Shown: one piece after another, positions 23,401 through 61,998 of the stretch | How the letters are laid out: each line of letters starts with the position of its first letter | How positions within the stretch are numbered: the first letter of the stretch is position 1 | From: a virus | DNA: 64,000 nt | IMG/VR virus record: IMGVR_UViG_3300042197_001007 | Direction: 5' to 3' (one strand) | Notes under the pieces: model-generated | What the model was told of the DNA's origin: nothing | The model's input: the letters and a program-made list of their open reading frames with translations, nothing else | Database searches by the model: none | Translations under genes and position numbers: made by a program

Positions 23401-26400
23401 GTTAAAGGATTATTCAGTGCTACTGTTGTAATACCAGCAGAAGTAACAACACCAGAAATGTTGGTATTTGCTTGAATTCCTGTAATATTATTGACTACTT
23501 CGTGACCAACTAATGTATTAGAGTTAGTAGTAAACAGTAGTTGCGAAGATCCACTGTTTGCCTGCGAGAATAATTTAGCGAAATATCTACTCTCTGCTCC
23601 CTTAATTGATTGGACAACTGGAGCATATGCTTGATCTCCTCGAAGGAATGTGAAGGAGTTAGCAGCGTCTGAGTTATTTGCTAATCTTGATGTGGCAATA
23701 ACACCAGACGTAATATCAGAAGCAGCAATCTGGTTAGTGGAAAGAGATACCCAATTGTTATTATTTGAAGCAGAAGTATTTACAACTCTATTGATGTTAA
23801 TAGTTTCTGCTGGGATGTCACTTGACTGAATTGTGTCGGTTTCAGTTATCTTAATGTTATTAACAATATTTCCATACAATCTGCTTTCAATTAAAGCAAC
23901 ACCAGTTGCTTGTGTTCCAGCACCAGATGGAGCAGAAAATGTCACTGTTGGTGGAGTTGTGTATCCTTTACCACCTCTAAATCCATTAAAGATTTGAATT
24001 GTAACAGTAACAACTTGACCATTAGCAATTGTACATGTTGCTGATGCTGGTACAGAACCTGCCTGTGGAGTTCCTCCAGTAATTGTAATTACTGGAGCAG
24101 ATGTGTATCCAGATCCTGGATCTGTAATATTAATCTGATAAACTACACCTTGACGATATTCTGTTGCTTGAATTTTACCACCAGAAATACTACCAGTAAA
24201 TACATCATTAGCAGTGAATTGTAGAGTTGGATCCACATTGAATGAAACAAATAAACTCGCATTGTCATTATTCAGAATGTATGAAGCAGATGTATCTTGT
24301 TGAATAGCAATATCTCCAGCAAGAGCACCTTCAATCGCAAGACGAGCTGCCTGATCCGCAACAGTAAAGACACTGAATGGTCTGAGTGGTGGGATCTGAT
24401 CAATAGAGATCTTACCACTGTCCGTAAGTTCTACAAGCGCCCTAGGAACAGCGTTTGTGGAGTATGGTTTATTGATGTATGGACCGAGGTTATTTGTGAT
24501 ATAGTCCCTAACTGCTTTCTGAGTTGGCAGTTTGGAGTCGGTTGAGTTAGCACCGCCAAGAGTATTAGAAGCGTCAAATCCAGTAACAACAACGTCTCCA
24601 CCTTTCAGTTTGAGGAATTCAACTTCTGAGATGGTAACCGTACCAGTAAAGGTAATATTACCAGTTCTGTTTTCAATTCTTGCGAATGTACCAACCTTAA
24701 AGTCTCCAAGTTCATCAGTACCAGAAACATATGTTCTACCATAGTTTTCGGAAACTTGTTCATATGCCTCAATTTTGACACCGCCATTTTCTGGTAGAGC
24801 ATTATAGTTTGTACCAGATCCAGCAAATTCCCAAGTGTGTGATGATGAATTGACAATAGATGGACGACGCAATCTAATTGTTTTACCAGTCAAAGTAGAA
24901 TTAGAAACTGCTTGTCCAGTAGCAATTGACTTAAATTCTGCTGGACCACCAGATCCTGATTCAATTGTTACTTGAGCAGAGAAAGGAGGTCCAACTGTTA
25001 CTGCTCCAACTGTATCAATATAATACTCAATTTCTGGATTTACGTTTTCATATCCATCAATTTTGACAACATAGTGCTCAAGTGGTTCTCTTCCAAGACC
25101 ATCAATAGTGAAGATAGTTCTTCCAGTTGGAGTAGAAGAAACATTGGTAATTGTTCCAACGTCAAAAGAATAAGCAAAACTATTGTATCCAGTTGCTCTC
25201 AAAGCAAAGATACCAAAGTTGGTAGCAGAGTTTGTAATAGAAGCATATCCACCACTTTCTGCTAACACACCATCAGTACAGAAAATAACGAATACAGAAA
25301 CTAACTGTACATAACCATCATTGATAATTCTGTATCCAGTTCCACCAAATGAAACAATGGTGAAAGCAGCAGCAACCATTGACTTACCCTGATTTGGGAA
25401 AGTAGCAGAACCATCAAGTTCTAGACCAGGGAATGGGCAGTTTGGTTGTTTGACTTTAGATCCATCAATAAGAGCACCGCCTCCACCTAAGAATGAGATT
25501 ACCGATGCGTTTTGTGTATATGGAGAAGCTTCAATAATTGGATAATCATCATAATCTGAACGTGGAGTATAAATTACACCATCTGCGTCATAAATTGTAC
25601 TATCTGGATAAGTTACAATTCCAACTGTACTATACAAAGTACCAAAGTTTTTAGTCGTTGCTCCAGGAGCAATAGTACCATCTAAAATATCTTCTAGAAG
25701 TGTAAATGAAGTTGTGATTGAAGAAGCAACGTTAGCACAAAGAGGACTTTCTGATGACAGTAGGATATTCCAATCTTCATATTTTGGTATTGGTGAAGTT
25801 AGAGCAGATGTAACTGGGTTGTAGATAATAATAGTTCCATTTGCTAGGGCACTTACAAATGTGTGAGTTGCTCCAGATGCTGTTCCAGCATCTCCAACAT
25901 TAACTGTAACAGTGGTATTTCCACCAGCAGTTGATACATTGGTGATTGTTAAACTCTTACCATAGTTACGATCTGTTGGTGTTGGACTTGCTAGATTTCC
26001 ACCACTACCAGAAGTACAACTGAATGTTAATGCTCCTTCTTTAAAGGCAAGTCTATGGGCAGTTGTAACTGGAGTTGTTGGGTTTGGGAAAGTAACTGTT
26101 AGAACACCAGTTGTTGCGTTGTATGTAGCACCAGTTGGAGTTCTTGTTGCTACTGTACCACCACTCCAGTTACGAATTGCCTGAATGGTTAAATCTCTTA
26201 CTTGATTGAAAGCATAGATTGTTTCATCTCTTTGTGCTTCTGGAATTCCAGTAAGTACTGTGTTTGTAAAATATGATTCGGCAGCAGTAACAATACCAGC
26301 ATTTCCACCAAGAACGAGATCTCTTAACAAACCATCAATGATATAGTTAATGTCTCTACGGCACTTGCTTTCGTTTAGATTTGATAAACCAAGTGATGGA

Positions 26401-29400
26401 TATTGTGTTTTAGTTGCTAGATATGCTTGATCTGCGATTAGATCTCTGTTTCTGGCAATTAGATAAGCACCATCTAGATAAGTTCCAGAAGCATTATTTG
26501 TGAGAACATCAACAAACAGATATGATAGTGTATTAATAGCAGATGCTACGTTAGCACATGCTGGTGATACCAAATCATCAATTACAGTTGGATCAAAGTA
26601 ACGTGTGACTGAAGAATACTGTGGAGTGTAAATTGGATCAGAAGGAGCTCCATTTTTGGTTCTCCACTTTCTCATCGCATAGATTGCTAACTCTCTGGCA
26701 TATTCAATAGCACGAACAGTTTGAATAATCTCGTAATCTACAAGATCAATTTGCCCAGCAGAAATATATTTCTTTGCCGCATCAATTACATTGTAGTTAC
26801 TTCCAAATTCCAAATCTCTACAAATAGCATTTAGGAAGTGACCGATGTCTCTGCGGCACTTAGCATCGCTTACTGGAATATTAAAGCTTGGATACGTCTT
26901 TTGAGTTGTTACTCCATTTATAACGCAACTAACAACAATACCAGCAAGTCTTACGACACTATCCTCTACTAGAGAAGCAACTGGAATTGATGTTGTAATC
27001 GTTGCTTCTCCAGTAACAACATTATCATATGTAAAACCAGTTATATTGTAAGCAGTTCCATTAAATGTTACTGTACCACCACTTACATAAGTATGTGCGA
27101 ATGATGATGGTCCTAGATATATTTTAAATTGAACACCACTAATTCCATATACAGGGAAATATTCTCTCTTAAATTGATCATTGATTTTTCTTACAACTTC
27201 ATCAGCGATGAAGTCAATATTGTTTCTAATCTGTAAGCAAGCATCTTGGTATCTTCTTGCTACTGGAGTTGCGACTGGGAATTTGTTTGGTGAGTTTAGT
27301 AGAGATAGAGTAATTGATTTTGAATATGATTTTACATTAGCAAACTGACCTGGATCAAAGTTTGAATCAAGAGTTACTGTAGTTTTCTTTGGAATGACAA
27401 ATCTTCTCGCTCTACCATCAGCATCTTCAATAACTTTGTAAATTCTTTGTTTTCCATTTAGAAATGAAAGATCTGGTGATGATGTTGGAAGGTTTGAAAT
27501 AAAGATTTCCTGACCTTCTTTAAAGTTATGAGTATTTTGTCTTCCAACCAGAGCATTTGTATAGAATACAATACCACCAAGATCTTCTGGTGTTCCATAA
27601 TCTCCAAAACCACCAGTAGCAACTTCTGGATCACCTTGTTTTGAGAAATCAATTCTTACAATTGGTAAAGCGGAAGTTACATCTTCATTTATGAATACTA
27701 CTTCTCCTTCTGCTCTGATGGAAATAATATCAGTTGAAATAAATTCGTATGCTGCTCTTAAAAATGTGAATACTGCGGTTCCATTCGTAACAGCACCAGT
27801 AGTATGAGATGGAGCAGAAGATGCTGAAGTACCAGCAGTTGTTATAGTATAAACATTATCACCAGTCCAAACCAACTGTCCTAATGTATAAGCAGTATTT
27901 GGAGCAAAACTTACCGAACCAATACCACCATATTGGAATGTTTCACCCGCATTAAAGCTACCGCTAATAACAGTAAAATCAACAGTACCATTTACATAAG
28001 CACTAGCTCCAGTAGTTCTAGTAAATGTTACATCGGTCAAAAGACCAATAGCACCAGTATTAACACCTCTTACTCTTTGTCCAGCCGTTAATTGAGATAA
28101 TCCAGTGTTAGTTTGATAGGTAGCACGGAATTTTTCTGGACCAAAAATTTGATGACCAACTGGGAAATCAACTCCATAATCACCATTTGCTGTTACATCA
28201 ATCTCAATACGCTGTTTGTCATCAAAGACCATCGCGTAATCCCAAGTGGCGACTGGATCACCATTAGAATCAACTTTATCTCTATATGTGACACCAGTTA
28301 CGTAGTTTTTGTCTCCAAACTTAAAGATGTGCTTACGTGGATTATTTGGTCTAATAATAACAAGACGTAAGTTATCACCAACAACTGAAGCATCTGGAGG
28401 AAGTGAAATTGGGTTGTCTTCTACATAATCACCACCAGAAACAACAATTGTTTCCTTTACTCCTGGAGTTGTCCAAGCTAATTGTGCTGCTTTTTTGATA
28501 GTTCTAACTGGATTAACAGCAGAACGACCATCATTTAAATCAGAACCAATTTGTTCTGAAACGTAAATGCGACCACCAACGTCATTTGTAGCAAGATTGA
28601 GAACGTATTCTGTAGTAGCAATTTTATCTGACTTATCACCAAATGATGGAGTAATAGATCTTGGGAAAATTCCTGCTTGACCACCCTGATTGAAATATGG
28701 TCTATTTGAATCAACAGCTCTAATACCAATATGTTTTAACTGAACCTCTCCATTCAACTCAATTCCATCTGTATGTTGTGGAGGAGTTGATCCAAGAGTT
28801 CCAGTATTTAATGCTTGATAAACATTTGTATTATGATAACGATATTGATTTTGCTGTATGATAACTCCCGCAGCCCATGGAGTACCACCAGAGTTCAAGT
28901 ATGTTTTTAAATTTGGTGCTCTAAACTGAGCATCTGGAGTAACAAAATTGTCAATATCAAGATTTAGAATTCTTGCCGTATCAGAAATGATAGAAGTGGA
29001 TGTTCTGATAGCACCATTAATATCAAGTTCAAAATCAACAGTATCAAGAAAAGCAGTCGCAGCAGCTCCTTGTCCATTACCACCAGTAATAGTTACAGAA
29101 GGAGCAGATGTATATCCACGCCCAATATTATCAACCAAGATTGCTACGACAGATCCATCACTAATTACAGCAGAAGCAAGAGCCTGTACTCCACCATTTG
29201 GAGGTGCCGATAAAGTAACTGTTGGTTGTAATGTGTATCCAGAACCTTGTGATGTTACAACAATTCTGTCAATTCTATTACCAGTTCTATTAATACCAAT
29301 GCGAGGCAAAGTAGTTACTGAGTCAAGTTGTGCTCTTAGAACCTCTTTTTCATTAGATCCAGAACCAGAACGAATCGTTAATTCATTACTACCGATTAGA

Positions 29401-29453
29401 GAAGGATTAGTAGCTTTGATTTGTTCTCTATCGGAATTAAACTGAAAACTCAT
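20439..29453 (-). CDS. giant tail fibre protein (beta-helix, phycobiliprotein-like inserts, GSGY beta-sandwich repeats, GLDAD collar repeats)
   Basis: 3004 aa; GLDADLLDG and GLDADRLDN motifs; C-terminal NVTIPNGANTLSSGSIVINSGVTVTVQTGGTWNIV. Confidence 0.85.
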   Translation of the reverse strand: MSFQFNSDREQIKATNPSLIGSNELTIRSGSGSNEKEVLRAQLDSVTTLPRIGINRTGNRIDRIVVTSQGSGYTLQPTVTLSAPPNGGVQALASAVISDGSVVAILVDNIGRGYTSAPSVTITGGNGQGAAATAFLDTVDFELDINGAIRTSTSIISDTARILNLDIDNFVTPDAQFRAPNLKTYLNSGGTPWAAGVIIQQNQYRYHNTNVYQALNTGTLGSTPPQHTDGIELNGEVQLKHIGIRAVDSNRPYFNQGGQAGIFPRSITPSFGDKSDKIATTEYVLNLATNDVGGRIYVSEQIGSDLNDGRSAVNPVRTIKKAAQLAWTTPGVKETIVVSGGDYVEDNPISLPPDASVVGDNLRLVIIRPNNPRKHIFKFGDKNYVTGVTYRDKVDSNGDPVATWDYAMVFDDKQRIEIDVTANGDYGVDFPVGHQIFGPEKFRATYQTNTGLSQLTAGQRVRGVNTGAIGLLTDVTFTRTTGASAYVNGTVDFTVISGSFNAGETFQYGGIGSVSFAPNTAYTLGQLVWTGDNVYTITTAGTSASSAPSHTTGAVTNGTAVFTFLRAAYEFISTDIISIRAEGEVVFINEDVTSALPIVRIDFSKQGDPEVATGGFGDYGTPEDLGGIVFYTNALVGRQNTHNFKEGQEIFISNLPTSSPDLSFLNGKQRIYKVIEDADGRARRFVIPKKTTVTLDSNFDPGQFANVKSYSKSITLSLLNSPNKFPVATPVARRYQDACLQIRNNIDFIADEVVRKINDQFKREYFPVYGISGVQFKIYLGPSSFAHTYVSGGTVTFNGTAYNITGFTYDNVVTGEATITTSIPVASLVEDSVVRLAGIVVSCVINGVTTQKTYPSFNIPVSDAKCRRDIGHFLNAICRDLEFGSNYNVIDAAKKYISAGQIDLVDYEIIQTVRAIEYARELAIYAMRKWRTKNGAPSDPIYTPQYSSVTRYFDPTVIDDLVSPACANVASAINTLSYLFVDVLTNNASGTYLDGAYLIARNRDLIADQAYLATKTQYPSLGLSNLNESKCRRDINYIIDGLLRDLVLGGNAGIVTAAESYFTNTVLTGIPEAQRDETIYAFNQVRDLTIQAIRNWSGGTVATRTPTGATYNATTGVLTVTFPNPTTPVTTAHRLAFKEGALTFSCTSGSGGNLASPTPTDRNYGKSLTITNVSTAGGNTTVTVNVGDAGTASGATHTFVSALANGTIIIYNPVTSALTSPIPKYEDWNILLSSESPLCANVASSITTSFTLLEDILDGTIAPGATTKNFGTLYSTVGIVTYPDSTIYDADGVIYTPRSDYDDYPIIEASPYTQNASVISFLGGGGALIDGSKVKQPNCPFPGLELDGSATFPNQGKSMVAAAFTIVSFGGTGYRIINDGYVQLVSVFVIFCTDGVLAESGGYASITNSATNFGIFALRATGYNSFAYSFDVGTITNVSSTPTGRTIFTIDGLGREPLEHYVVKIDGYENVNPEIEYYIDTVGAVTVGPPFSAQVTIESGSGGPAEFKSIATGQAVSNSTLTGKTIRLRRPSIVNSSSHTWEFAGSGTNYNALPENGGVKIEAYEQVSENYGRTYVSGTDELGDFKVGTFARIENRTGNITFTGTVTISEVEFLKLKGGDVVVTGFDASNTLGGANSTDSKLPTQKAVRDYITNNLGPYINKPYSTNAVPRALVELTDSGKISIDQIPPLRPFSVFTVADQAARLAIEGALAGDIAIQQDTSASYILNNDNASLFVSFNVDPTLQFTANDVFTGSISGGKIQATEYRQGVVYQINITDPGSGYTSAPVITITGGTPQAGSVPASATCTIANGQVVTVTIQIFNGFRGGKGYTTPPTVTFSAPSGAGTQATGVALIESRLYGNIVNNIKITETDTIQSSDIPAETININRVVNTSASNNNNWVSLSTNQIAASDITSGVIATSRLANNSDAANSFTFLRGDQAYAPVVQSIKGAESRYFAKLFSQANSGSSQLLFTTNSNTLVGHEVVNNITGIQANTNISGVVTSAGITTVALNNPLTSTLAAGTIIEFRRGASPLVFESSFTQGGFVDNVVIASGGSGFTNGQYFDVPLSGGSGTGLRSNIIVTNGAVTEVTVTSSGTGYTADFNVSSAPAEIGGGSGLVLAAKINTVSRQYANTSLDIQRVTDLTISADEFGTIGVARFKKSQFLIGQSGNGSIVLKTGADSGLDADLLDGAQGSYYLNASNLNSGTVSVDRLSGTYNISISGQSGNTIRLLSNTTNPTSNPSPNAFSVGIVADTRNNSANGLSDGGTKNIVLSIRPGGSGFTVDGGVKQLAFTDNDNMWLRGSGTAVDTFGSWAKVWTSLNDGPGTGLDADRLDNRQGTWFQNAINMNFGTLSDNRLPSYQTRKDFQDTVRVLSFTGQPRYRIYIPDETLTASPFLPGLTVNLYNSLDQGTGVISITDVTVNNDTNDPFNNYTIITGTLTTGNFIGATSIGITSNKKAFRDFSIATLDSNADGIPDGSFVAATLESDGGTANLRLGRKDGQASSPGLYFNSSTLAATYNAAIVATGGNGSTSSGTLDVKVVNANGFTLNGNTIWNAGNVTFNSTNVVSTAVIRDASGNFAAGTITANLTGAASANVLKAGDTMTGSLTLTGAGSNLSVSGTLGVTGNTTLTANLIVDTNTLYVQSTDNLVGIGLVPSTAASTNSKLQVYGGTLGSTDESKLYLASFEAAVSNYSRLLIYNRKFNTTFTDWRSASTRIQQRIDVTDQAYIEFNPEGSEYGLALGTQNNESLRLIQTGEVGIRKTPSTGYNLDVSGKGRFSTSLEIRDASDNSGASMLFLGSSGFRNFRIGNQLVGNDIFEITPSTAAGGSTWATTPALAIQGSTSRVGLGTTTFSSTATGATVNYQLNVQGNININGTVYQNNLPFVTSRWTQSTNGTDIHRLSRVGIGVADPTWTLQVGGSGNNGLNIQGTNFSSGVNNSVLYANGDRQWLDSFGIFKSNRNNVSENVTIPNGANTLSSGSIVINSGVTVTVQTGGTWNIV

Positions 29454-45117: not shown

Positions 45118-48100
45118 TTATGTTATTTGGAATGGAATGATTGTCGTTCCAGTATTTGAAACAGCAGCATCTCCAACAACAGATATTGATAGGTTATTTG
45201 AACTTCTATCTCTTATTGAATTTCCTTGACATGTTAGTAAAGATGTTCCAGAAATATTTGTTATTTGAGATGGAACAGTAAAGTTTGTACCAGCGTATAA
45301 AGAAGTTCCTTTTACAACACGCAAACTGTTAATTCTGCCGGAAATAGGGGAACCAGCAGTCCAAGAAGCTCCAATTCTAAATGGTTTAGAAGCATAATTG
45401 TTGGCATCGGTGTATGTTGATGCTGTAGTTACAGTTCCATTAATAGCAACTCTTGTAGTTCCAGAAGATCTGTATATAGCAACATGATTGAATTGAGATG
45501 TGCTACACGTATTTGAAGATGTAATTCTGTAAGACCCATTAACAAACACTCTGATATTTCCGGTAGAATTCATTTCAACATAAATTGAAACATCTGTTGA
45601 TGCGGTTCTTTGATCTATCAAAACTTGTGTTCCACTGAGAGCATTTGGTCTCCAATAGAACTCTATAGTAAAGTCTCCAGTTCCATAATTGAAAGCACTA
45701 TTTGAAGCGATATTTAAGTAATCTCCGGTTCCATCAAAGATCACAGAATTTCCTAATAATGCTGTTGATCCTCTTACGAAAGTACATCCAGTAAATGATG
45801 TAGATGTTTTTCCAGTATATTGAATTAAACCACCATTTTCTGTATATAAGTATCCACTCGTTGGGAAGAATGTGGTTGTTGGGACCTCAATAGTAGATGC
45901 TATAGATCCAGTTGAGAATGGAACTGCTACTGGATTTTGAATAGATGGTGGAAGAAGATTGAAGTAATCTCCTGATAATGTGTAGCTGGAATTTGCTCTA
46001 TCTACAAAGTCTTGTAAAGTTAAAGATGGATAGTAGGTGTCTAGTTCTTGGATGGAAATTCCAGAAACTCTCGCATATCCATCATCGAATATTCCAGAAA
46101 AATGACTAATTCTGTGACCAACATTAGTTTTTTCATATGTTCCAATATAGTTTGTGCCACTACCAAATAAAACATTTCTTATTAAAATATCAGATAATGA
46201 TCTTCTACCAACAAAATACTGTCCATTTATATCGTCCAATTCTACAAAACCATTCGACCTTGTGAAAATCGGATCACTTAATAGAGAACTTTCTTCATAT
46301 CCATCAACTGCTCCTGTTGGGGGAGGAATAATCAATACCTCTGTTTGATTAATGTAAAGCTGCGATAATTCAGTATGAATACTTTGTATAGTGATTGACG
46401 CATTAAATTCTGTATCTACAATTGAATTGATAATACTGAATACTTGTGTTGCTACTTCAGATTGGTGTGTAGATGTGGTAGTTACTACTGAATTATAATA
46501 GACAAAAGGAGAAACAGAAATATTTACAAGTTTTTCTGAAACTAAGAATTCTGATAATTGAATTCCCTCTTTCTTTATTTCACCTCTCAATTCTGTTGCT
46601 GAATATCTTAGATCAAAACCAGATACAATATTTGTAGATCCTGCTTCAATAATTCTATTTCCACCACTAATAAAAATAGAAGATATAGATTCAATTGAAA
46701 TTTCTGGTTGTAATTCTGCTACGATACAAATAGAAGTCGTTGTTATTGAAGTTGAAGGAGTAATGATTTGGAATTGTGTTTTTCTTTCTTCAATTCCCTG
46801 TATTTCTGATGTTCCGCCCTTAACAGTTACAACTTGTGATTGCGATTCAACAACAGATACTCCACCAAATACGATAGATACTGGATCTGGAATTTGACGC
46901 AAGAATGTTCCTGCTGTCCAAGACTTAGCAATTGTATTTGATTGACCTCTTTGTACCTTAAGGAAACGATCGGTGAGTTTTCTGTAGTATCTAACAATCT
47001 CGTCACCAATTAATAGATAACCATTTGTCTTAAACTTGCTTGTATCAGCAACATAAACAATATTATCAGATACACCAAGATCAACATCAAGATACGCACC
47101 AGTAGCATAGTAATTAACGTTAGAAAGGGCATCATTAGGAATTAGATTTTCAAACGTTGTAGTAATTTGACGATTTGTAGAAATTGTCGTATTTGAAACA
47201 ATGTCCTGAATTTGGGCAATTATTAATGTTGGTTCTTCAGAAACTGTTACAATTTTTACTTCATCTAACGCGGGTTCTACTGTATCCAAGAACTCTATGT
47301 GTTCTCTACTTAAATTATCTCCAGTATTTCTAACTAGTTGAACAATAGCAGTAATTACTCTATCTGAACTTATTGGACTATCAAAGAATATAGAAGTAAA
47401 CGAATTAACACCTGAAACTTGATTTCCTAAAGCATCAACTATAGATACAATTGTTAAACTCTGAAGCTCTACAAAAGAATTAACACCAACATTAATCAAA
47501 GAAACTCCAATATCTCTTTCTGTTAATAAATCATATCCTCTAGATACAACTACTTTTGGTGCTTTTGTATATCCAGAACCACCATCAATCAGATCAACGC
47601 TGATGACCTGACCTTTGCTTACTAAAACGTTTGCTCTGGCACCGCCACCATTTCCATCAAGAGAGATGAAGTTTAATACAGGAGGAATATAATATTGATA
47701 TGCTGTTGGTTGTGTTAATGGATCATAGCTTCTTTGGTTCCACTCAAGATCAATAACTTTACCATTTTCTATTTTTGCTACAACACTAAGACCTTCGCCG
47801 CGAGTAACTCCATTGTAAGTCTCAACATCAACAGTTCCATATAAAGAATTAGAAACTTGTTGATTGCTTCTATTTTCTTTACTTGTTGTTATTCCTGGAA
47901 GTCGTTTAATTTTTCTGAATGTATCTTCACCATCAATTCTGATTAAATCATTATTTGATAAGAAGACAAATGGTTTTTTATAAGTTTTTCCTAAAACAGT
48001 GCCAGACCAGATTTGATTTAAATCCGAAAGCAATAATCTGTTGTTATCATCTTTTTCAAACACAACGGTGGCATTTGAAATAGAAATGGAAGTATTAAGA

Positions 48101-51100
48101 TTATAAAATCCACTAACAGCAAATCCTATATCTTCATCCTCATCAATTTCGTATTTGTTGCCAAAAACATCAAATTCTAATGTGCTTCCACCATTCACAT
48201 AAACATTTGAAATTTCACCAATCATTTTATATGTGCCATCTCCATTCATCTGATATGCGTGAATTGGAGAACCAATCTTATCGCCCATCCATCCGTAGTT
48301 GATGAATTGTAGCAACCCATTTGTTACTTGTAAAGAAACTTTCGATTTTGCGTAATAACTATCAGGGTTAAAATCGTAAATATTGAGAACTTGTCCGATA
48401 TCTCTTCCATACAAATATCGCATATCAATCTTCATTTCTTCAAGAATTGGAACATTGAAGAAAATATTTGGACCAGAAATTGTATATGAATAACCTTCTC
48501 TTTGTAATACACCATCAAGGAAAACATACAAGAATTCAGGTTCTTCTATATTTTGTACGGTTAAATCTTCAACATCCAATATTAAGAATGGACCGGATCT
48601 TGTACCATCAACTAAGTTGTAATCAATCGTCAATCTCTTGTAATTACCAACACCAATACCTACAACTTTTTCAACAGCAGTTGGTTCTCCAATACTCTTG
48701 GCACTAAAATCTTGATCCCATATTGGAGCTACATCAAATACCAATTGGTTTGGTATTACGTCTCTCTTGATGTAATAAGAATCAAATCTTGGATAGTCTT
48801 CTGTATATTTTGGTCTCTGTAAAACAGCATTAATTGTTAGGAAAAGATCTTCATCTTCATCTGTGATGACTTCATCGCCGTTTTCCCAATAAAGATCAAA
48901 TACTTTATTTTCACCATCAACATAATCAGGAAGAGATCTTGTTACTGTCTTTTTGTCTAAAATATCCTTTACATTTAGATAAAGAGAATTGAGAGATGAA
49001 GCAACATCATTACATTCTTGTGAAAGAAGCAATGGATCATCAATGAGGTTATAATTTGAGTAAGTTTCTGTGTTTGACCAATATCCGGTTTTGTTTTGAT
49101 TTACTTCTGTAATTTCTACACTTCCAGCACCATCTGCTATAATTTCCTTAACGATATCAATCATCGTGTTGATGCTTGAAGCAACTTCTTGACAAACAGG
49201 AGAAATAGGATCAGTTAGAACAGTATTATCAATTACTGGAGAGATTGATGTATAAGCACCTGCGGTTAATTGATTTCTCATAGCAGCAATCATCAATGAA
49301 CCTAAGTTCTCCCAGGCATCAATCGCAGCTGTTGTTTCTTCAACACTTCTGTTAATATATGTTAATTCTTCTCCATATGGATAACCAGCATTTGTGTAAT
49401 AAGATCTGGCAAATTCTACAACTTTTCTATTTCCACCGAACTTTAAGTGATAAGTGATAGCATCAATGAGATATCCGAGATCTCTCTTACACTTTTGCTT
49501 ATCTGTTGGTGGTAAAGTATAATTATCATAAATGTATTCACCAATTTCATCTTGTAAGTATGCTTTGTTTGCTTGAATTAAATTAGAAGCATCGTAGAAC
49601 GTACCGTTATTAATACCACTGAGATAGAATGTGATTTGATCAGATGCCGAAGATGCTAATGCGGCATTTGATACTGTTACTTGTGTTGCGCTGGTAATTG
49701 CTGTTATTCTTGTATTTGAGGGAAATGCCCTACCACAACTAACATACATTCCTACAGCAACTCGGTTTGTATCACCAATTGTAATCGTGGTTGATCCTAA
49801 ATTATAGACAACATTGCTTTCAACAATGTCCCAATTTCTCATCGCAAGAGTTGCTAAATTTGTGGTATATCTAAAGATATCTACAGAACTTACTTTGTTC
49901 TTTGTGATATACTCATATTCACTATTATTGTTAAAAATATTGACATAATCAATAGTTTTTACATTTCCACCAAATCTTATATCGTGTTGATAAGCATCTA
50001 AGATATATCCAATATCTTCTTGATAATCATCAATTTTAGAGCTCCAATCAAGTGCTGGATATTTTGCTTTTCCATATCCAATCACCTCTTCAATGATAAA
50101 AGTTCTATTTCTTTCAATTTGATTAGCAGCATCTAACCATCTACCACTTCTTTGGTAAATATTTCTAATTTTTCTTAGATATCTTGTGTTATATTGATTA
50201 TCTTTAAAAGCAAAATATTTGCCGTAGAAAGTTACTCCTCTGTAAGAAGTAAGATCATTAAGATCGTTGCCAGTTCTTTCTGTTCCAGGACCAAGTGGCG
50301 GTTTTGAAAATACAATTGTATCTCCCTGAACAGTATACGCCACTTCTGGTTCTTGAAGAATTCCATCTAAAGTAATAATTAAACTCTTGGCACTAATTGG
50401 ACTGAATGGCACTCCATTAGCATCTCTTACTTGAAATACTGTTCTTCCTTGTAATCTTCCATCACTATCATAATACCCATTAAATGCTTGAGCGAGAGAT
50501 ACAGTAAAAGCACGATATTCACTGAAATTAAATTCTGATGGAGATGCTGAACCAAAACCTCTTCGTATTCTTTGGTTCTCTACTTTCTGTATTGTTTGTG
50601 TTAGAATTCTTCTTGTGTTTTCAATCGTAATAACATTTTTCTCTGGATCCCACAATTGGATGATTGAAAAATGACCGCTCTTTGCCGCTTGCTGAGGCAT
50701 TGATGTTGAACTATTTGTTTCAACATCAACCTGACCAAATAGTTTAAATCCAGCTGGGTGAGTTGTTGATTTAATTAACTCTCTCCACTGATCAATTGGA
50801 GTTTTTGATTTGATGACGTAGGAATAATCTTGATAAAAATCACTATCTAAAAGTTTCTGGTTGGCAACACCAAGTTTTCCTTTATCTGATCCATAGTATC
50901 CAAGATTATTATAAAAACTTGTGATTTCTGGAGATAGTTCAGTCACAAATATTGATTTAATTGTACCATATGAAATGGCATCAATTGATGAAATAGTGTA
51001 ACCAGTTCTAAAAATACCAGTTATATTTTCTACTTTTAGTAGATTTGATCCTGGTCTCCATTCCGATACTCTACCTCTGGCAACTTCAACTCCAGAAATT

Positions 51101-54100
51101 TTTTGAACTACGAGTTCCCCTCTTTGAAATTCACCAGAAAAATTAGTAAGGGAAAAAACAGTTTTTGAAGTAAAGTCTGATGATACTGTTTTATCAAGAT
51201 GAAAAGCACCACCATTTTGTATAATAGAAATACTTTGAGGAACTCCAATTGAGTTGCTGTTAACATAAGCCTGTATATTTCCTTCAACAATTTCAATTTC
51301 TGGAGCAAATGTATAATTTTTGCCTGGATTATCTACAGTAATTGAAAAAATTCTTCCCTGTCTAACAATAATGTTAAACTGAGCATTAATTCCATCTCCA
51401 TTTGTTATCACAACTTTTGGATTATAATAATTAGAACCTTCGTTATCAATTCTAACTCCGGTTATAGTTTTTGTTGTTTGGTCAAACAATACCGTTGCTT
51501 CTGCTTTAAATGAAGTCGTTGGATCGCACCCAACGATAATTGGAGACTTCTTATAATTTAAACCAGAATTGATAACACTAAAAGAGTTGATTGTTCCGAT
51601 AGCAAATTGCCCAGTTGTAGTGTATGTAATTGATCCAGAACCATCCCAAAGAGGAATAGAAGATAATTGATAGACAAATCTATTTGGAGTTACATATGTA
51701 ATCGTTTTATTTCCCTGTAATGGGTCAGAAATAATCTTTAAATACTTTCCATCAGAATTTATAATTTGATTTTTATCAAAATAGTAAAAATTAGCAAATT
51801 GTGTTTGAATTTTTTGTGAATATGAATTCGCAGATAGTCTTGGACCAAATCCAAATTTTACATCTGTAAATGATCCTGGGTTTCCTGGTAAAATTGTTGT
51901 CGTTATCTTTTCTTCAGTTACAATATTGTAATTCTTGCTTGGACTTAAATCAAAATAAGTACCAGTTAAAGAAGAATGTGAGGTATCAAATTTATATTTG
52001 TAATATTCCTGAATATCAATATTTGGATTAGAAACAAAGTTTACATTATCGGTAGAAAATTCAAATTTATATTCAACAACATTGGCAGTTTCAACAGAAA
52101 CTAATTTTGCTGGAGTGCTACTATCAAAGAAATTTGTGCTTATCTTTACATCTTCAGCATTTGTTTTTTCTGTTGAATAGTTAAAAACAATTACAGCTTC
52201 TTGTGTATTTGGATCATATGATTTGATAAATCCAGAAAAACTTGAAGAAGAAATTTGATAATTATTGGCAAAATTATAACGTGGTTTGTATAAAGAAACT
52301 TCTTGACCATCATAATGATCTATATTTTGAGTTCCTTCCCTCGCTCTGATTACAGTAATTCTGTTATTTGTAATCGAAGATACTTGTACTATCTCATTGC
52401 CAATCTTCAGCAAATCACCGTTAGAAACGCCAATTGCGCTATCAACAATCAGAGATGTAGATCCGGCAGCAAATCCAACGTGATCAATATAAAGAACCAA
52501 TCTGGCATTTCCAAGAGAACCGAGAGATCTTACAAGATCTTCATCATCAACACTTAGATAATCTGCTTTCTTATATCCAGAACCACCATTCTGAATAACA
52601 ACTGAAGAAACAACACCAGCAGAAGACACAATAATTGTAGCCGTTGCGCCAGATCCAGATCCTCCAGTCAACGAAACATTTGTATAAGTTCCTGGTGTAT
52701 AATCAGCACCACCATTAAAAATTTCAAATCTACCAACACCAGTATAATTAATATTTGATGTATAATCAGGAGATATAAATTTTACTGTTTGATAAAGTCT
52801 TTTTCTCAAATAATATGTTTTTGTTTTAGTGGCATCATTTGGAAAGATATTGACATTAATTTGATCGCCAATTCCCAGTCCGTGCTCTTGTGCCGTTTCA
52901 ATTAAAGCAACATTTTGATTGATATCAAACGGTTCTAAGTTATCACTCAAAGAAGTGAGAGTTATAATTCTTGATCCCGAAGTGTTGAATAAATCATTTG
53001 ATTGAATAAAGTAATCATCATTAACTACCCAAGTGCCAGTTAATACTTTGATTTTTACAACATTCTGTCTCGATGTTCCCTCTAAGACTTCTCCTGTAGC
53101 AATGGGGGTATTAATACCATCAGTAAGAGATAGTATAGCTCCCTTTGTATAATTGCTATCTTGATCAATCAATATTGAGAATGTTTTAATATCTGCTGAA
53201 AATGTTCCTGTTGTGTTAAATGTTCCGGAAACATTTTTGAGCACAATTGTATTATCATTGGTAACAGTTCCAACGATTTCTCCATATGCTCCAGAGGCTG
53301 GTTGTCTTAGTGTGTCATTCGCAAACAAATACGCACTTTGTATCGTTGTTAATTGTACAACCTTTGTCTCTTTACTCTGTAGATAATTTACAGTTTTTCC
53401 GTTTACGGATGATACTATAACCTCAGCATCTTGCCCTTCTGTTCCAGAATTATCAAAATAAAGTTTTGAATTTACGGAGAAGTTGTTAGAAGAATTTTCA
53501 ATTGAAACCGAATCAACTACTCCTGGTCTTACCTCGGCAATTTGAGCAATAACTCCTTCACCATTTCTTGGCATTCCTGGAGAAAAAAGTCTTCTTGATT
53601 TTTTTGGAATATCATTTTGATTGATATCAGAATTGTAGTTACTATCAACTGGAAGAGAATAAAAATTCTCTCCAATAAAATATGGAAACTGTGGTACTTG
53701 ATTACTATCAACAGTCAAGAAATAAGCGTATGTTCCATTTGGATAATCTGGAGTTACACAAAATCTACCATTGTTTTGATCCAGTGTTCCACTCTTGTGT
53801 ACATATCTGTAATCATTAACAAAAGTTCCCAGCGGATAAGTAGATGTTGATGGCCCTTTTTGTCTATTGTTGTTCAAAGAATAACTTGAAGTCATTCTAA
53901 CAATAGATGATTGTGAATTGAGTGGATCTTGATATCCAAAAGGACCATAGATTGGATTTCCATCATAAGCAAATCCAATAATCGGAGAGTGAGTTTTAGT
54001 GGTTGGTTCTGTTCCAGCTCCGTTTAAATTATCATTTAGTAATACTCTGAGTGCCTTAGGGTTGCCGACATGACCATATCCATACTTCAATGCTTGATTA

Positions 54101-56253
54101 TAATTTTCAAAGACATATCCATATTCAGTATCTAATGTATTTGCTAGTTTTGTAAATCTATTTTTATTCCATTCCTTGAGATATGGGATACCAGATGCTC
54201 CACTGCCAACAGGAATAATATCTACGATTACTGTACTTTGATTATAAAAATTTCCTTCATCATTTTTAATAAATCCAGTAATATTACCATCTGTGTTAAC
54301 AATGGCGGTATAATCAGCAAATCTTCCTCTACCGGCATTATCTCTAATTCTAACGATCGGAGGGGAAGAATAATACTCTCCAGGATTATCAATAATTAAA
54401 CTGGTCACTTTTCCACCAGTAACTACAGCACGAACAACAGCTCCTCGTCCAGATGTAATTGTAACTTCCGGAGTTCTTGGAAATACAGTTGTTGTATCAA
54501 CGATAATTCTTTCAACTACCTGTCCAGATAGAACTGCTCTTGCCTGATTTGGAACATCGTCAAGAAGAACAAATGGAGGATTTACATATCCTGTTCCTTG
54601 ATTATCAACTGCGATACTTTCAAGAATACCAAAACGAATACTTTCTTCATCACGAAAACTATAAATTGGAACTCCATTCAAAAGGATGCCAACGTCACGT
54701 TTTGGAGTTTTATAAACCTCTGTGGTCTTGGTTGCTTCTTTTCTTATGATACGAAGTATCTTCTGATCTTTTACTTCTTGAGTTACTGTAGATCCATCTA
54801 AAATTTTGTAAGATGGATAGCTTGAACTCGTAATGTAATAATATTGCTCGTCCTCAAAAATAGCAGATACATCTGTAGATACTTCATTCAATGCTGTTGA
54901 AATTGAAGTATTTGTTGGAGTAAATACTGGATCTCCATCTCCAACAACCCAACGAGTTTGATTTGTTCCGGAAAGAACTATTTTTGGATCAGCAGTTTCA
55001 AATCCTGGTTGTGAAACTTGAATTTGATCGCCAACAGAGGCATATGGATGTGCGTCTTGTGGAGATAAGTTATAAACAACGCCAAGGGTCAATAATGATA
55101 TACCAGATCCTTCTAAAATAACCGGTTTATAAACTGTTGATCCTTCAGCGTGTAATACGGGAGTTGTTCCTCTTGATTGAATAACAAACTGAGTGATATT
55201 CTTATCACTAAAAGAGATCTTCTCTTCGTTGATTAATACCTCTCCAGATATATCCCATCCAATTGTGGAAAATACATCAATTCTTTTTCCAGACCCACTT
55301 GATGCCTGTAAATCTTTTTCTAGGCGAGTTTTTGTTGAGATTGAAAACGCACCATTTACGGTTTCTGGAGCAAGAACAATGTTCCAGATCTGTTCTCCAT
55401 CAAATGTTCCATCCGCAAAAACATTATCTACTGTAGCAGAAGCATATCCATATTCACTTGTTGGGGACTGTACGATTTTCTTTCCAATCAGTGCCTTTGG
55501 ATTTCCAGAAATAACCTTTACTTTTAAAGCATAAACACTAACCCAGTCTGCTTCAGATGCTTTGTATGTAAAATCTCTTGGTTTGTAGACAGATGGTTTA
55601 TTGTCTGCTTCTTTTGCTACGATTGTGTTAAAAATGAACTTGATTGAACTATCAGTTCCCTTTGCCTTATAAAACTTTTGAATGTTCTTGATCAGAGTTC
55701 TTTTGTCAACTTCTCCTTTTAAATACTTCTCTGGAAAAGAACCCAAATATTGCGATTCAAAGTTTCTAACGAACGCATAAAGAAATAGATTGCTGATATT
55801 GTAAACAATCTCTCCAGATATATGAGATGCTGCTTCTGTACTCTGGAAATCTGAACTGTCGTATAGATCTCCTAAAGTTGTGTTACCACTTACACCCCTG
55901 GAACAATTCTGAAGTTGATTATTTGTTCTTGTGGCATAGAAGATGATTTCATTGCCAATTCTAATGTATCCGTTTTTCTCTGGAAAAGAACTGGCATCAA
56001 TCAAATAAATTGATGTGTCTGAAGAAGAAATACTAGAAGCTAAAACATCCGTTTGCTTCAATAAATTCTTTTCATAAAAATCAATGTCCAAATATTTTTG
56101 GACATTATTGATGATGTCAAGTGTTCCACCTTGTACTTCTAGAGATTCGTAGTATTTCTCTACAAACTTTCCAAATAGTTCATATTCATTTGAAATGAAC
56201 TCTGGAAGTTGTGACTCAATAAGAGTAGAAATTCTTTTGGTCTTGACTGCCAT
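45118..56253 (-). CDS. gp7: baseplate wedge initiator, greatly expanded (phycobiliprotein-like domains, C-terminal LamG)
   Basis: LIESQLPEFI, FYKAKGT, SPIIGFAYDGNPIYGP, KLLDSDFYQDYSYVIKS, THPAGFKLFG; downstream of gp6. Confidence 0.85.
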   Translation of the reverse strand: MAVKTKRISTLIESQLPEFISNEYELFGKFVEKYYESLEVQGGTLDIINNVQKYLDIDFYEKNLLKQTDVLASSISSSDTSIYLIDASSFPEKNGYIRIGNEIIFYATRTNNQLQNCSRGVSGNTTLGDLYDSSDFQSTEAASHISGEIVYNISNLFLYAFVRNFESQYLGSFPEKYLKGEVDKRTLIKNIQKFYKAKGTDSSIKFIFNTIVAKEADNKPSVYKPRDFTYKASEADWVSVYALKVKVISGNPKALIGKKIVQSPTSEYGYASATVDNVFADGTFDGEQIWNIVLAPETVNGAFSISTKTRLEKDLQASSGSGKRIDVFSTIGWDISGEVLINEEKISFSDKNITQFVIQSRGTTPVLHAEGSTVYKPVILEGSGISLLTLGVVYNLSPQDAHPYASVGDQIQVSQPGFETADPKIVLSGTNQTRWVVGDGDPVFTPTNTSISTALNEVSTDVSAIFEDEQYYYITSSSYPSYKILDGSTVTQEVKDQKILRIIRKEATKTTEVYKTPKRDVGILLNGVPIYSFRDEESIRFGILESIAVDNQGTGYVNPPFVLLDDVPNQARAVLSGQVVERIIVDTTTVFPRTPEVTITSGRGAVVRAVVTGGKVTSLIIDNPGEYYSSPPIVRIRDNAGRGRFADYTAIVNTDGNITGFIKNDEGNFYNQSTVIVDIIPVGSGASGIPYLKEWNKNRFTKLANTLDTEYGYVFENYNQALKYGYGHVGNPKALRVLLNDNLNGAGTEPTTKTHSPIIGFAYDGNPIYGPFGYQDPLNSQSSIVRMTSSYSLNNNRQKGPSTSTYPLGTFVNDYRYVHKSGTLDQNNGRFCVTPDYPNGTYAYFLTVDSNQVPQFPYFIGENFYSLPVDSNYNSDINQNDIPKKSRRLFSPGMPRNGEGVIAQIAEVRPGVVDSVSIENSSNNFSVNSKLYFDNSGTEGQDAEVIVSSVNGKTVNYLQSKETKVVQLTTIQSAYLFANDTLRQPASGAYGEIVGTVTNDNTIVLKNVSGTFNTTGTFSADIKTFSILIDQDSNYTKGAILSLTDGINTPIATGEVLEGTSRQNVVKIKVLTGTWVVNDDYFIQSNDLFNTSGSRIITLTSLSDNLEPFDINQNVALIETAQEHGLGIGDQINVNIFPNDATKTKTYYLRKRLYQTVKFISPDYTSNINYTGVGRFEIFNGGADYTPGTYTNVSLTGGSGSGATATIIVSSAGVVSSVVIQNGGSGYKKADYLSVDDEDLVRSLGSLGNARLVLYIDHVGFAAGSTSLIVDSAIGVSNGDLLKIGNEIVQVSSITNNRITVIRAREGTQNIDHYDGQEVSLYKPRYNFANNYQISSSSFSGFIKSYDPNTQEAVIVFNYSTEKTNAEDVKISTNFFDSSTPAKLVSVETANVVEYKFEFSTDNVNFVSNPNIDIQEYYKYKFDTSHSSLTGTYFDLSPSKNYNIVTEEKITTTILPGNPGSFTDVKFGFGPRLSANSYSQKIQTQFANFYYFDKNQIINSDGKYLKIISDPLQGNKTITYVTPNRFVYQLSSIPLWDGSGSITYTTTGQFAIGTINSFSVINSGLNYKKSPIIVGCDPTTSFKAEATVLFDQTTKTITGVRIDNEGSNYYNPKVVITNGDGINAQFNIIVRQGRIFSITVDNPGKNYTFAPEIEIVEGNIQAYVNSNSIGVPQSISIIQNGGAFHLDKTVSSDFTSKTVFSLTNFSGEFQRGELVVQKISGVEVARGRVSEWRPGSNLLKVENITGIFRTGYTISSIDAISYGTIKSIFVTELSPEITSFYNNLGYYGSDKGKLGVANQKLLDSDFYQDYSYVIKSKTPIDQWRELIKSTTHPAGFKLFGQVDVETNSSTSMPQQAAKSGHFSIIQLWDPEKNVITIENTRRILTQTIQKVENQRIRRGFGSASPSEFNFSEYRAFTVSLAQAFNGYYDSDGRLQGRTVFQVRDANGVPFSPISAKSLIITLDGILQEPEVAYTVQGDTIVFSKPPLGPGTERTGNDLNDLTSYRGVTFYGKYFAFKDNQYNTRYLRKIRNIYQRSGRWLDAANQIERNRTFIIEEVIGYGKAKYPALDWSSKIDDYQEDIGYILDAYQHDIRFGGNVKTIDYVNIFNNNSEYEYITKNKVSSVDIFRYTTNLATLAMRNWDIVESNVVYNLGSTTITIGDTNRVAVGMYVSCGRAFPSNTRITAITSATQVTVSNAALASSASDQITFYLSGINNGTFYDASNLIQANKAYLQDEIGEYIYDNYTLPPTDKQKCKRDLGYLIDAITYHLKFGGNRKVVEFARSYYTNAGYPYGEELTYINRSVEETTAAIDAWENLGSLMIAAMRNQLTAGAYTSISPVIDNTVLTDPISPVCQEVASSINTMIDIVKEIIADGAGSVEITEVNQNKTGYWSNTETYSNYNLIDDPLLLSQECNDVASSLNSLYLNVKDILDKKTVTRSLPDYVDGENKVFDLYWENGDEVITDEDEDLFLTINAVLQRPKYTEDYPRFDSYYIKRDVIPNQLVFDVAPIWDQDFSAKSIGEPTAVEKVVGIGVGNYKRLTIDYNLVDGTRSGPFLILDVEDLTVQNIEEPEFLYVFLDGVLQREGYSYTISGPNIFFNVPILEEMKIDMRYLYGRDIGQVLNIYDFNPDSYYAKSKVSLQVTNGLLQFINYGWMGDKIGSPIHAYQMNGDGTYKMIGEISNVYVNGGSTLEFDVFGNKYEIDEDEDIGFAVSGFYNLNTSISISNATVVFEKDDNNRLLLSDLNQIWSGTVLGKTYKKPFVFLSNNDLIRIDGEDTFRKIKRLPGITTSKENRSNQQVSNSLYGTVDVETYNGVTRGEGLSVVAKIENGKVIDLEWNQRSYDPLTQPTAYQYYIPPVLNFISLDGNGGGARANVLVSKGQVISVDLIDGGSGYTKAPKVVVSRGYDLLTERDIGVSLINVGVNSFVELQSLTIVSIVDALGNQVSGVNSFTSIFFDSPISSDRVITAIVQLVRNTGDNLSREHIEFLDTVEPALDEVKIVTVSEEPTLIIAQIQDIVSNTTISTNRQITTTFENLIPNDALSNVNYYATGAYLDVDLGVSDNIVYVADTSKFKTNGYLLIGDEIVRYYRKLTDRFLKVQRGQSNTIAKSWTAGTFLRQIPDPVSIVFGGVSVVESQSQVVTVKGGTSEIQGIEERKTQFQIITPSTSITTTSICIVAELQPEISIESISSIFISGGNRIIEAGSTNIVSGFDLRYSATELRGEIKKEGIQLSEFLVSEKLVNISVSPFVYYNSVVTTTSTHQSEVATQVFSIINSIVDTEFNASITIQSIHTELSQLYINQTEVLIIPPPTGAVDGYEESSLLSDPIFTRSNGFVELDDINGQYFVGRRSLSDILIRNVLFGSGTNYIGTYEKTNVGHRISHFSGIFDDGYARVSGISIQELDTYYPSLTLQDFVDRANSSYTLSGDYFNLLPPSIQNPVAVPFSTGSIASTIEVPTTTFFPTSGYLYTENGGLIQYTGKTSTSFTGCTFVRGSTALLGNSVIFDGTGDYLNIASNSAFNYGTGDFTIEFYWRPNALSGTQVLIDQRTASTDVSIYVEMNSTGNIRVFVNGSYRITSSNTCSTSQFNHVAIYRSSGTTRVAINGTVTTASTYTDANNYASKPFRIGASWTAGSPISGRINSLRVVKGTSLYAGTNFTVPSQITNISGTSLLTCQGNSIRDRSSNNLSISVVGDAAVSNTGTTIIPFQIT

Positions 56254-58054: not shown

Positions 58055-58446
58055 TATCGTGTACGCTCTAAGAAGAATTCGACTGCGATTGGTGTGTCTT
58101 CTCTACCACGCACAGCATAAGTGACTTCAACTGAGTAACCATTGGTATCAAATTCTGGTGATACGATCACATTGATTAAAATAATTCTTGGTTCGTATCG
58201 TTCCAGAACATCAATCACAGAAGATCTAATGATACCGGCAGTACCATAGTCCAATGGTTCAAACAGTGTGGCATATATTCCAGAACCCAAATTTGGTTGA
58301 AATACACGCTCGCCCTTGTTCGTAAGAAGCAAATTGACAATTGATTGTGTAATCGCAGCTTTATCCTTCACGATGACAAGATCATCAGTGACTGGATGCT
58401 TCTTAAAAGTAACGCTCAAATCTTTGAACGTCTGAAATTCGGGCAT
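58054..58446 (-). CDS. gp25: baseplate wedge subunit, gp25/lysozyme-like
   Basis: FKDLS, LLLTNKGERVFQPNLGS, LERYEPRI. Confidence 0.93.
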   Translation of the reverse strand: MPEFQTFKDLSVTFKKHPVTDDLVIVKDKAAITQSIVNLLLTNKGERVFQPNLGSGIYATLFEPLDYGTAGIIRSSVIDVLERYEPRIILINVIVSPEFDTNGYSVEVTYAVRGREDTPIAVEFFLERTR

Positions 58447-60269: not shown

Positions 60270-60449
60270 TCACTGCCCCACTGTCACTAACTGCTTGGCG
60301 ATGTTGCGTCCTACGAAGTCACGAACTTGATAGGGGATTGTGATTTGTTTGCCCGCATCTTCGTGGCGATAGATGTAATGCTTGCTGCCGTTTCTATGTA
60401 ACACCCAACCATTGATCTTTGCGATCTTCTGGAGTTGTTTGGTTGTCAT
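60270..60449 (-). CDS. hicA: HicA-like mRNA interferase (likely start MTTKQLQK)
   Basis: LQKIAKINGWVLHRNGSKHYIYRHEDAGKQITIP matches HicA G[WF]...R..GSH..[YF].H.....[VI]T[VI]P. Confidence 0.7.
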   Translation of the reverse strand: MTTKQLQKIAKINGWVLHRNGSKHYIYRHEDAGKQITIPYQVRDFVGRNIAKQLVTVGQ

Positions 60450-60490
60450 GGGGTGAGTGTAGAGAAATGGGGGTGTGGTAGGATGGGGGG

Positions 60491-61971: not shown

Positions 61972-61998
61972 GGGTCGTTTTGTTTTGATGTGATCAGT

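Follow-up and report, generated by a model that had tools for sequence, protein, structure and literature searches.

Two globin-fold domains of the phycobiliprotein, or bilin-binding globin, superfamily are encoded at positions 48949-50151 on the minus strand of the IMG/VR virus record IMGVR_UViG_3300042197_001007, within a giant protein that occupies the baseplate gp7 slot of a T4-like cyanomyovirus. The window referred to below is the whole 64,000-nucleotide stretch of DNA that was analysed. The two domains, R3 and R4, are nested, R4 being carried in a loop of R3. A first-pass annotation made from the DNA letters had described the segment as phycobiliprotein-like, and this reading is upheld in both sequence and fold; the motifs and cysteine coordinates that it quoted are all correct, and all fall in a single open reading frame (ORF), 45118..56253(-). 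In order of translation, and with amino acids (aa) numbered along the product of this ORF, the parts of the segment are as follows.

49837..50151 (-): N-terminal part of R3, helices A-G, aa 2035-2139, delimited by AlphaFold (AF2) helices 19-119 and the R4-profile match.
50023..50025 (-): codon of Tyr2077, at the R3 position of the bilin-attachment cysteine (Cys84-equivalent), located by alignment A1 and a motif census.
49621..49830 (-): small beta domain, aa 2142-2211, with which the insert in the G-H loop of R3 begins (AF2 strands 123-191).
49123..49620 (-): R4, aa 2212-2377, a complete globin domain (helices A, B, E, F, G and H) with K-C-K-R-D intact, delimited by AF2 helices 198-355, VIA-align, HMMER and hhalign.
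49489..49491 (-): codon of Cys2255 of R4 (K-C-K-R-D), which HMMER places on Cys84 of phycocyanin alpha and which is nearly invariant in 67 orthologues.
49192..49194 (-): codon of Cys2354, at the N-terminal end of helix H in R4 (SPVCQEVAS), invariant in 67/67 orthologues.
49021..49122 (-): linker from R4 back to R3, aa 2378-2411, mostly coil in the AF2 secondary structure.
48949..49020 (-): helix H of R3, aa 2412-2435, QECNDVASSLNSLYLNVKDIL, completing the globin fold of R3 (AF2 helix 393-413; R4 profile).
49012..49014 (-): codon of Cys2414, in the first turn of R3 helix H (QECNDV), invariant in 67/67 orthologues.

In R3, RWLDAANQIERN begins at aa 2038 (nucleotide 50142) and YQEDIGYILDA at aa 2077, with Tyr in place of the Cys84-equivalent; in R4, FYDASNLIQANK begins at aa 2219 and KCKRDLGY at aa 2254.

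Relationship of R4 to phycobiliproteins

There is little doubt that R4 is homologous to phycobiliproteins. When the segment was compared by phmmer with all Protein Data Bank (PDB) chains, all 30 matches at E<1 were phycobiliproteins, comprising 29 phycocyanin alpha chains and one allophycocyanin beta (best E 0.0027). Profiles built from the segment (alignment A2) and from the domain alone (A3) reached PDB chains at E 6e-4 and E 5e-4, with phycobiliprotein alpha subunits accounting for 45 of 46 and 47 of 48 matches, respectively, and these matches cover alpha residues 35-105, from helix B through helix E. The phycocyanin string with which the first-pass annotation had compared R4 is exactly what HMMER aligns to KCKRDLGYLIDAITYHLKFGG (PDB 6xwk). 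Moreover, PF00502 is the sole Pfam family that touches the segment (19.2 bits, E 0.0013); a relative with more copies of the domain, P0095, exceeds the cut-off of this family at 33.7 bits, and several homologues carry precomputed PF00502 assignments.

The likeness is strongest to alpha subunits. In hhalign comparisons of A3 with ten host phycobiliproteins taken from a Synechococcus metagenome-assembled genome (MAG), the match reached 92% probability (P 5.8e-7, 62 columns), and by subunit type it was 90% for alpha (P 1.6e-6) versus 24% for beta. Hidden Markov model (HMM) scores were 18.8 bits for CpcA, 15.7 for CpeA, 10.2 for MpeA and at most 7.3 for beta subunits, with reversed controls at or below 2.7. 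A structure search by VIA-align among 48,161 representative chains also placed phycobiliproteins at the top for R4, including phycoerythrin 5aqd_M (Z 14.5), the bilin domain of ApcE (4xxi_A; Z 13.1, root-mean-square deviation (rmsd) 2.3 Å, 117 aligned positions, model residues 197..355) and a far-red allophycocyanin (8or7_A; Z 12.7). Foldseek returned dozens of phycobiliproteins with probabilities of 0.99-1.0 and template-modelling (TM) scores by target of 0.5-0.59.

Several of these results also weigh against reading R4 as a phycobiliprotein relative that carries a bilin. The segment from the window, P0002, falls under the gathering threshold of PF00502 (19.2 vs 22.2 bits), the Foldseek E-values are weak (0.13-0.4), and Z scores of 13-14 can be reached by chance for all-helical models. 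Detectable sequence homology is confined to helices B-E, the 62 columns aligned by hhalign, with pocket helices F and G outside it, and in global mode hhalign did not sensibly align helices F-H to phycobiliproteins. The N-terminal X-Y hairpin, which serves the alpha-beta heterodimer, is absent: structural alignments start at target residue ~34-50, and in the model R4 directly follows the beta domain. An ESM Atlas shape search with the whole model gave only TM scores below 0.3, and a search of short proteins yielded mostly fragments, with no stand-alone intermediate or phycobiliprotein at database-wide E-values. An ESM Atlas feature search with R4, which gave scores of at most 0.80 and Imm5-like names, was treated as noise.

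Although no single number is overwhelming, we accept homology because independent methods agree on the register, pairing Cys with Cys84, Arg with Arg86 and Asp with Asp87. Borderline single E-values (5e-4 to 3e-3) and the frequency with which helical models reach Z ~13 by chance might instead suggest a chance or convergent likeness of an all-helical phage domain. We find this hardly credible, given that phmmer, two profile searches, Pfam, hhalign, Foldseek and VIA-align all rank phycobiliproteins top, with the three residues aligned and the reversed controls low.

Like the alpha subunits of phycobiliproteins (CpcA, CpeA and MpeA; PF00502), R4 has a globin-like A-B-E-F-G-H fold, K-C-x-R-D-x-G-[YF] and a GG turn. 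Unlike them, it lacks the X-Y hairpin and is embedded in a 3,711-aa virion protein, nested in a second copy of the domain; its G-H loop is long, and an additional invariant Cys stands where helix H starts. The PB domain of ApcE (4xxi / 7sc7_BD) is the best low-rmsd match and is likewise a phycobiliprotein domain that has a loop insertion and belongs to a large multidomain protein; however, ApcE is a host antenna protein, and its loop insert is not another globin domain. ApcE attaches its bilin without a lyase, at a cysteine located elsewhere than the Cys84-equivalent position.

Nesting of R4 within R3

The segment was modelled with AlphaFold from alignment A2, which holds 67 sequences of IMG/VR relatives (predicted local distance difference test (pLDDT) 86.8, predicted TM score 0.81); this alignment was needed, as prediction from the single sequence reached a pLDDT of only 34. 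In the model (P0002 numbering), helices at 19-119 are followed by beta structure at 123-191, six helices at 198-355, coil, and a final helix at 393-413. R3 and R4 are paralogous: a phmmer search with R4 against all window ORFs matches the N-terminal half of R3 at E 2.5e-8, and the R4 profile matches it at E 5.6e-20. This profile is split on R3, with its positions 5-115 at aa 2036-2141 and positions 114-161 at aa 2385-2434. Solved globin domains align with the model over its residues 13..417, pairing 118-138 positions and passing over the insert. At only ~105 residues the N-terminal part of R3 is too short for this, so the fold must be completed by the distal helix. According to the model, then, R3 has a globin fold, and both a small beta domain and the entire R4 are inserted in its G-H loop. 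The first-pass annotation had proposed that R4 is inserted inside R3 and had suggested structure prediction as a check; the split profile match and the predicted R3 globin fold, divided around R4, bear out the nesting, but the insert consists of the beta domain plus R4 rather than R4 alone.

The best structural matches of R3 are the sensor globins 4zva_A (DosC; Z 11.1) and 4uiq_A (Z 11.0) and the photocobilin globin 8j2w_B (Z 10.4), and they bring two other readings into play. One is that the domain shares a superfamily with phycobiliproteins and has another origin, in an older bilin-binding globin of the BBAG or photoglobin type or in a phage-borne globin, so that its phycocyanin-alpha likeness reflects shared ancestry only. 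The photocobilin and DosC matches of R3 would fit such an origin, as would BBAG-1 and BBAG-3, which carry CXRD and attach bilins by themselves (PMC10151467). BBAGs and photoglobins resemble R4 in being non-antenna globins related to phycobiliproteins; unlike R4, they occur as separate bacterial proteins whose genes cluster with those for bilin synthesis (PMC10151467), and we compared them by description only. We nevertheless consider a separate origin unlikely: among the phycobiliproteins compared, rod alpha subunits rank first (CpcA, then CpeA, then the beta subunits), the alpha-type K-C-x-R-D-x-G-[YF] and the GG turn are held in common, and the domain is found only in phages of phycobiliprotein-bearing hosts.

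The second reading gives the domain another ligand and a receptor-binding or sensing role that has nothing to do with bilins; the ligand would be haem, as it is in globin-coupled sensors, or a molecule of the host surface. DosC and 4uiq_A are haem-binding sensor globins, and the baseplate is the host-contact end of the virion. However, what is conserved is a CXRD motif of the bilin type, a proximal-His pattern was not noticed among the conserved positions, and the sequence relatives are phycobiliproteins rather than haem globins, all of which makes this reading very improbable.

The beta domain of the insert has structural matches of its own, the closest being the decoration protein of phage Bridgette (8eci; Z 9.2, rmsd 1.7, 67 aligned), and it additionally resembles tailspike, tail-tube and baseplate insert domains in the structure search. 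At its C-terminal end, directly before R4, most relatives have a variable Gly-rich segment of ~50 aa (GGGGAP.G.T..., alignment A1 columns ~241-300), which is absent in the window and in the relatives L002, L003 and L005.

The bilin-attachment motif

Bilins are bound through the motif CXRD in phycobiliproteins and in BBAG-1 and BBAG-3, which attach them by themselves (PMC10151467). In phycobiliproteins, K-C-x-R-D supplies the thioether Cys together with the Arg and Asp that hold the bilin, and on sequence evidence R4 keeps this motif. As the first-pass annotation had noticed, the Cys84-equivalent is present in R4 (KCKRD, Cys2255) and not in R3 (DYQED, Tyr2077). The helix-E motif C-x-R-D is also found in R1 and R2 (both KCRRD), two further copies of the domain in the window that are described below.

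A census of 490 domain copies in 120 giant proteins suggests that the motif behaves as a unit. Among the 380 copies with Cys, Arg is present in 374 and Asp in all 380, whereas the 110 copies without Cys retain Arg in 50 and Asp in 96. Arg is thus kept in 98% of Cys-bearing copies versus 45% of Cys-less ones, in a domain family whose mean column identity is 28%. The Cys-less copies are essentially R3 of gp7 orthologues, with Tyr for Cys, and the Arg position in them is now T, I, K, E, L, V or N. Deeper gp7 relatives have EKCSRDI at the R3 helix-E site (A1), and hence the window clade lost the site, after which the partner Arg was relaxed; in the window lineage, Lys, Cys and Arg are all gone from R3. 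Relaxation of Arg once Cys is gone is the behaviour expected of a functional unit. A different variant occurs in the second giant protein of phage P-HM2 (GU075905.1 78380-89425, L117), where C-x-D-D copies (NCVDD, QCIDD) keep Cys and have Asp for Arg.

A Cys in helix H is present in all four window copies (SPACANVAS, SPLCANVAS, QECNDVAS and PVCQEVAS). It stands at the N-terminus of the helix in the P0002 model, at residue 335 in R4 (helix H from 336) and at residue 395 in R3. The first-pass annotation had called it a beta-155-type Cys kept in 4/4 copies; the count holds, while equivalence to beta-155 is a matter of topology, sequence similarity to beta subunits being weak (24%). As a topological analogy in the model, the comparison remains suggestive because T-type lyases, which are the phage-encoded type, serve the beta-155 site (PMC10452541). 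A census of helix H with a mini-profile, in which 218/218 copies had Cys, is circular and was not used as evidence. The helix-H Cys is invariant in R3, which has no helix-E Cys, so a simple disulfide between helices E and H is unlikely.

An insertable module of cyanophages

Within the phages sequenced so far, this large family of insertable domains is restricted to cyanophages. The window itself holds two further copies, both in the virion gene 20439..29453(-), whose product has 3,004 aa.

26487..27260 (-): R1, with KCRRD and SPACANVAS and a beta-rich insert of ~85 aa in the B-E loop (profile E 8.5e-21).
25671..26495 (-): R2, with KCRRD and SPLCANVAS and an insert of ~105 aa in the G-H loop, the same site as in R3 (profile E 2.1e-22).

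The R4 profile is split on R2 as well, into positions 5-125 and 114-160. Nesting recurs in the family, as is evident from the G-H insert of R2, the B-E insert of R1 and, in the IMG/VR relative L072 (1001-2896), a third globin-like domain within the B-E loop of R4. This last case gives three levels of nesting, and the third domain has its own C-x-R-D (SKCERDL) and helix-H Cys (VPECSNV). The B-E and G-H loops are thus insertion sites both in the R1/R2 gene and in the gp7-slot protein and its relatives. The first-pass annotation had argued from the presence of the domain in two different virion genes for a mobile chromophore-binding or interaction module. An insertable module, recurring in two virion genes of the window and in arrays elsewhere, is what we observe; chromophore binding is a hypothesis with good grounds, not a result.

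In tblastn searches of 50,697 phage genomes, 278 records were positive with R4 (E<=1e-3) and 318 with R2 (E<=0.1), and all are Synechococcus or Prochlorococcus phages or are named 'Cyanophage', bar one named 'Marine'. Long structural matches in BFVD are to cyanophage or uncultured phage proteins only, and the Bordetella, Arthrobacter and Burkholderia phages that appear there match the 70-aa beta insert alone. Homologues in non-cyanobacterial phages, which the first-pass annotation had regarded as evidence against its proposal, were thus found neither among these genomes nor in BFVD. A scan of genome contigs with one gp7-specific pattern gave a sole match, a cyanophage contig binned in the Synechococcus MAG from which the ten host phycobiliproteins were taken. 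A profile scan of 1.84 billion representatives returned at least 1,339 clusters at 50% identity, a family without its own Pfam model, made up mostly of giant proteins, a single one of which can have as many as 35 matched stretches.

Tandem arrays of this length resemble shaft building blocks, and it is possible, although we are inclined to doubt it, that the domain is a pigment-free structural or adhesion module: a captured fold used as a helical spacer or knob, in which K-C-x-R-D and the helix-H Cys would serve folding, inter-domain contacts or post-lysis cross-links rather than a ligand. The strong conservation of R3 after loss of its Cys (HD.RFGGN is invariant in 67 sequences) implies a fold that is valuable without the site, the X-Y hairpin is not seen, and pigmented virions are, to our knowledge, unreported. 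Against such a module stand the retention of Arg and Asp in nearly all and all Cys-bearing copies, respectively, at so low a mean identity, the relaxation of Arg after Cys loss, and the helix-H Cys of R3, which is invariant without a helix-E partner and makes an E-H disulfide unlikely.

Possible bilin binding and light-dependent adsorption

The explanation that we favour, and whose chances as a whole, including bilin binding, we judge to be even, begins with descent of the domain from a host phycobiliprotein, closest in sequence to the rod alpha subunits. R4 would then gain a covalent bilin at Cys2255 during assembly in the bilin-rich cyanobacterial cytoplasm. To host descent combined with a covalent bilin on Cys2255, which we predict from the motif, we would give even odds at best, and perhaps slightly worse. 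Attachment could be autocatalytic, as in ApcE and the BBAGs, or could depend on lyases of the host or of the phage, for instance the phage-encoded CpeT of the T type, and the invariant helix-H residues Cys2354 and Cys2414 may be further attachment sites. R3, itself without pigment, would be the scaffold on which R4 is displayed at the edge of the baseplate, and the pigment might make the conformation of the baseplate or fibre light-responsive.

Phages P-HM1 and P-HM2 adsorb only in light, whereas P-SSM2 and P-SSP7 adsorb in the dark, and light-sensitive tail fibres have been suggested as the cause of light-dependent adsorption (PMC6628666). For S-PM2, light-dependent adsorption is independent of host photosynthesis, according to work cited in the same paper (PMC6628666). 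S-PM2 has the fold (BFVD) and gp7 of P-HM1 has the domain (tblastn), and presence of the domain agrees perfectly with light-dependent adsorption among the very few phages for which both can be compared. We scored four genomes for the domain, for cpeT and for bilin reductase.

G002, a close relative of the window: 14 domain matches; cpeT present; bilin reductase absent.
P-HM2: 6 domain matches (in gp7: KCARD, KCIRD); cpeT present; bilin reductase present.
P-SSM2 (AY939844.2, T4-like): no domain (unfiltered six-frame HMM search, best 7 bits); cpeT absent; bilin reductase present.
P-SSP7: no domain; cpeT absent; bilin reductase absent.

In these four genomes cpeT tracks the domain and bilin reductase does not. 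G002 (186 kb, 96% complete), the record to which L002 belongs, has no match to PF05996 (bilin reductase) or PF01126 (haem oxygenase), and cpeT was not found in the 64-kb window. In G002, cpeT (6766-7269) lies ~3 kb upstream of a fibre-like gene (10254-13296) with at least 7 phycobiliprotein-like domain matches.

We think it improbable, although worth stating, that a light-responsive pigment explains the light-dependent adsorption of some cyanomyoviruses. Equally doubtful is the broader proposal that cyanomyovirus particles are biliproteins: phycobiliprotein-derived domains of their baseplate and fibre proteins would hold covalent bilins, made by host or phage, at the C-x-R-D Cys and possibly, through CpeT, at the helix-H Cys, and would serve the virion as a photoreceptor by which light gates adsorption or the triggering of the baseplate. 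Other points tell against the favoured explanation. Most of the coupling between Cys and Arg is contributed by a single lineage, R3 of gp7 orthologues; the losses are linked by phylogeny, so the Fisher P of 4e-39 overstates independence. Arrays in which a single fibre protein has as many as 35 matched stretches resemble shaft modules. Phage bilin synthesis is not tied to the domain, since G002 has the domain without the reductase and P-SSM2 the reductase without the domain. The correlation with adsorption comes from four genomes and is a lead, not a test. Finally, we know of no report of coloured cyanophage particles.

Literature searches found no publication describing phycobiliprotein-like domains in phage virion proteins. 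The window contributes a clean two-level nesting in a gp7-slot protein and a site in R3 that has undergone a natural 'knock-out', its partner Arg being relaxed, and the contrast between P-HM2, P-SSM2 and P-SSP7 is a further contribution. A metabolic host protein would here have been turned into an insertable virion module, with domain-in-domain nesting at the B-E and G-H loops. Two open questions bear on it: why certain cyanomyoviruses need light to adsorb, with no dependence on host photosynthesis (PMC6628666), and why phages, including those of phycobilisome-less Prochlorococcus, carry genes for bilin synthesis and lyases (PMC2984593). For both, a bench-testable candidate is a pigment-protein domain, putatively of host origin, that retains its attachment motif and sits where the virion meets the host, and a virion photoreceptor, if true, would explain light-dependent adsorption as well as the unexplained phage cpeT.

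The gp7-slot protein and its surroundings

The window carries a minus-strand block of T4-like late genes, from 384 to ~59.8 kb, that includes four giant ORFs. Its landmarks are as follows.

384-1829 (-): major head protein gene.
6299-8482 (-): tail sheath gene.
43236-45062 (-): gp8-like gene (PHROG match), flanking the giant ORF.
45118..56253 (-): giant virion or baseplate protein of 3,711 aa in the T4 gp7 slot (phrog_4406 and baseplate wedge PHROGs).
56258-58054 (-): gp6-like gene (PHROG match), flanking the giant ORF on its other side.
58054-58446 (-): gp25-like gene (PHROG match).

The gene order is thus gp25-gp6-X-gp8, where X is the 3,711-aa ORF. Its product matches phrog_4406 end to end (E 0) and also phrog_2885 (E 6.9e-212) and phrog_708, baseplate wedge subunit families; the Pfam family Baseplate_wedge (PF23786) is only weakly matched (19.2 bits vs a cut-off of 27). 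A position between gp6 and gp8 homologues, together with matches to baseplate-wedge families, identifies the protein as T4 gp7-like, as the first-pass annotation had assigned it. The T4 gp7 protein has 1,032 aa and shares this slot and the PHROG matches; the window protein is ~3.6 times as long and has YHYH, phycobiliprotein-like and LamG domains. The YHYH domain (PF14240) is at aa 726-854 (E 2.9e-33), and a concanavalin/LamG-type domain (Laminin_G_3, PF13385) is C-terminal at aa 3507-3648 (E 8e-18), where it is likely to form a carbohydrate- or receptor-binding tip. The closest isolate match over R4 is Synechococcus phage S-B43, at 68% identity, and one IMG/VR contig is identical to the window across the R3-R4 segment.

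Beyond the late-gene block, a GC-rich island at 60400-62800 (52-59% GC vs ~37% elsewhere) holds small minus-strand genes, and isolate-phage DNA matches among the best hits listed cover only its first ~500 bp. Its genes include a HicA-toxin-like ORF at 60270-60494 (PF07927, 31 bits), DUF7249 (60951-61211) and DUF3574 (62139-62573).

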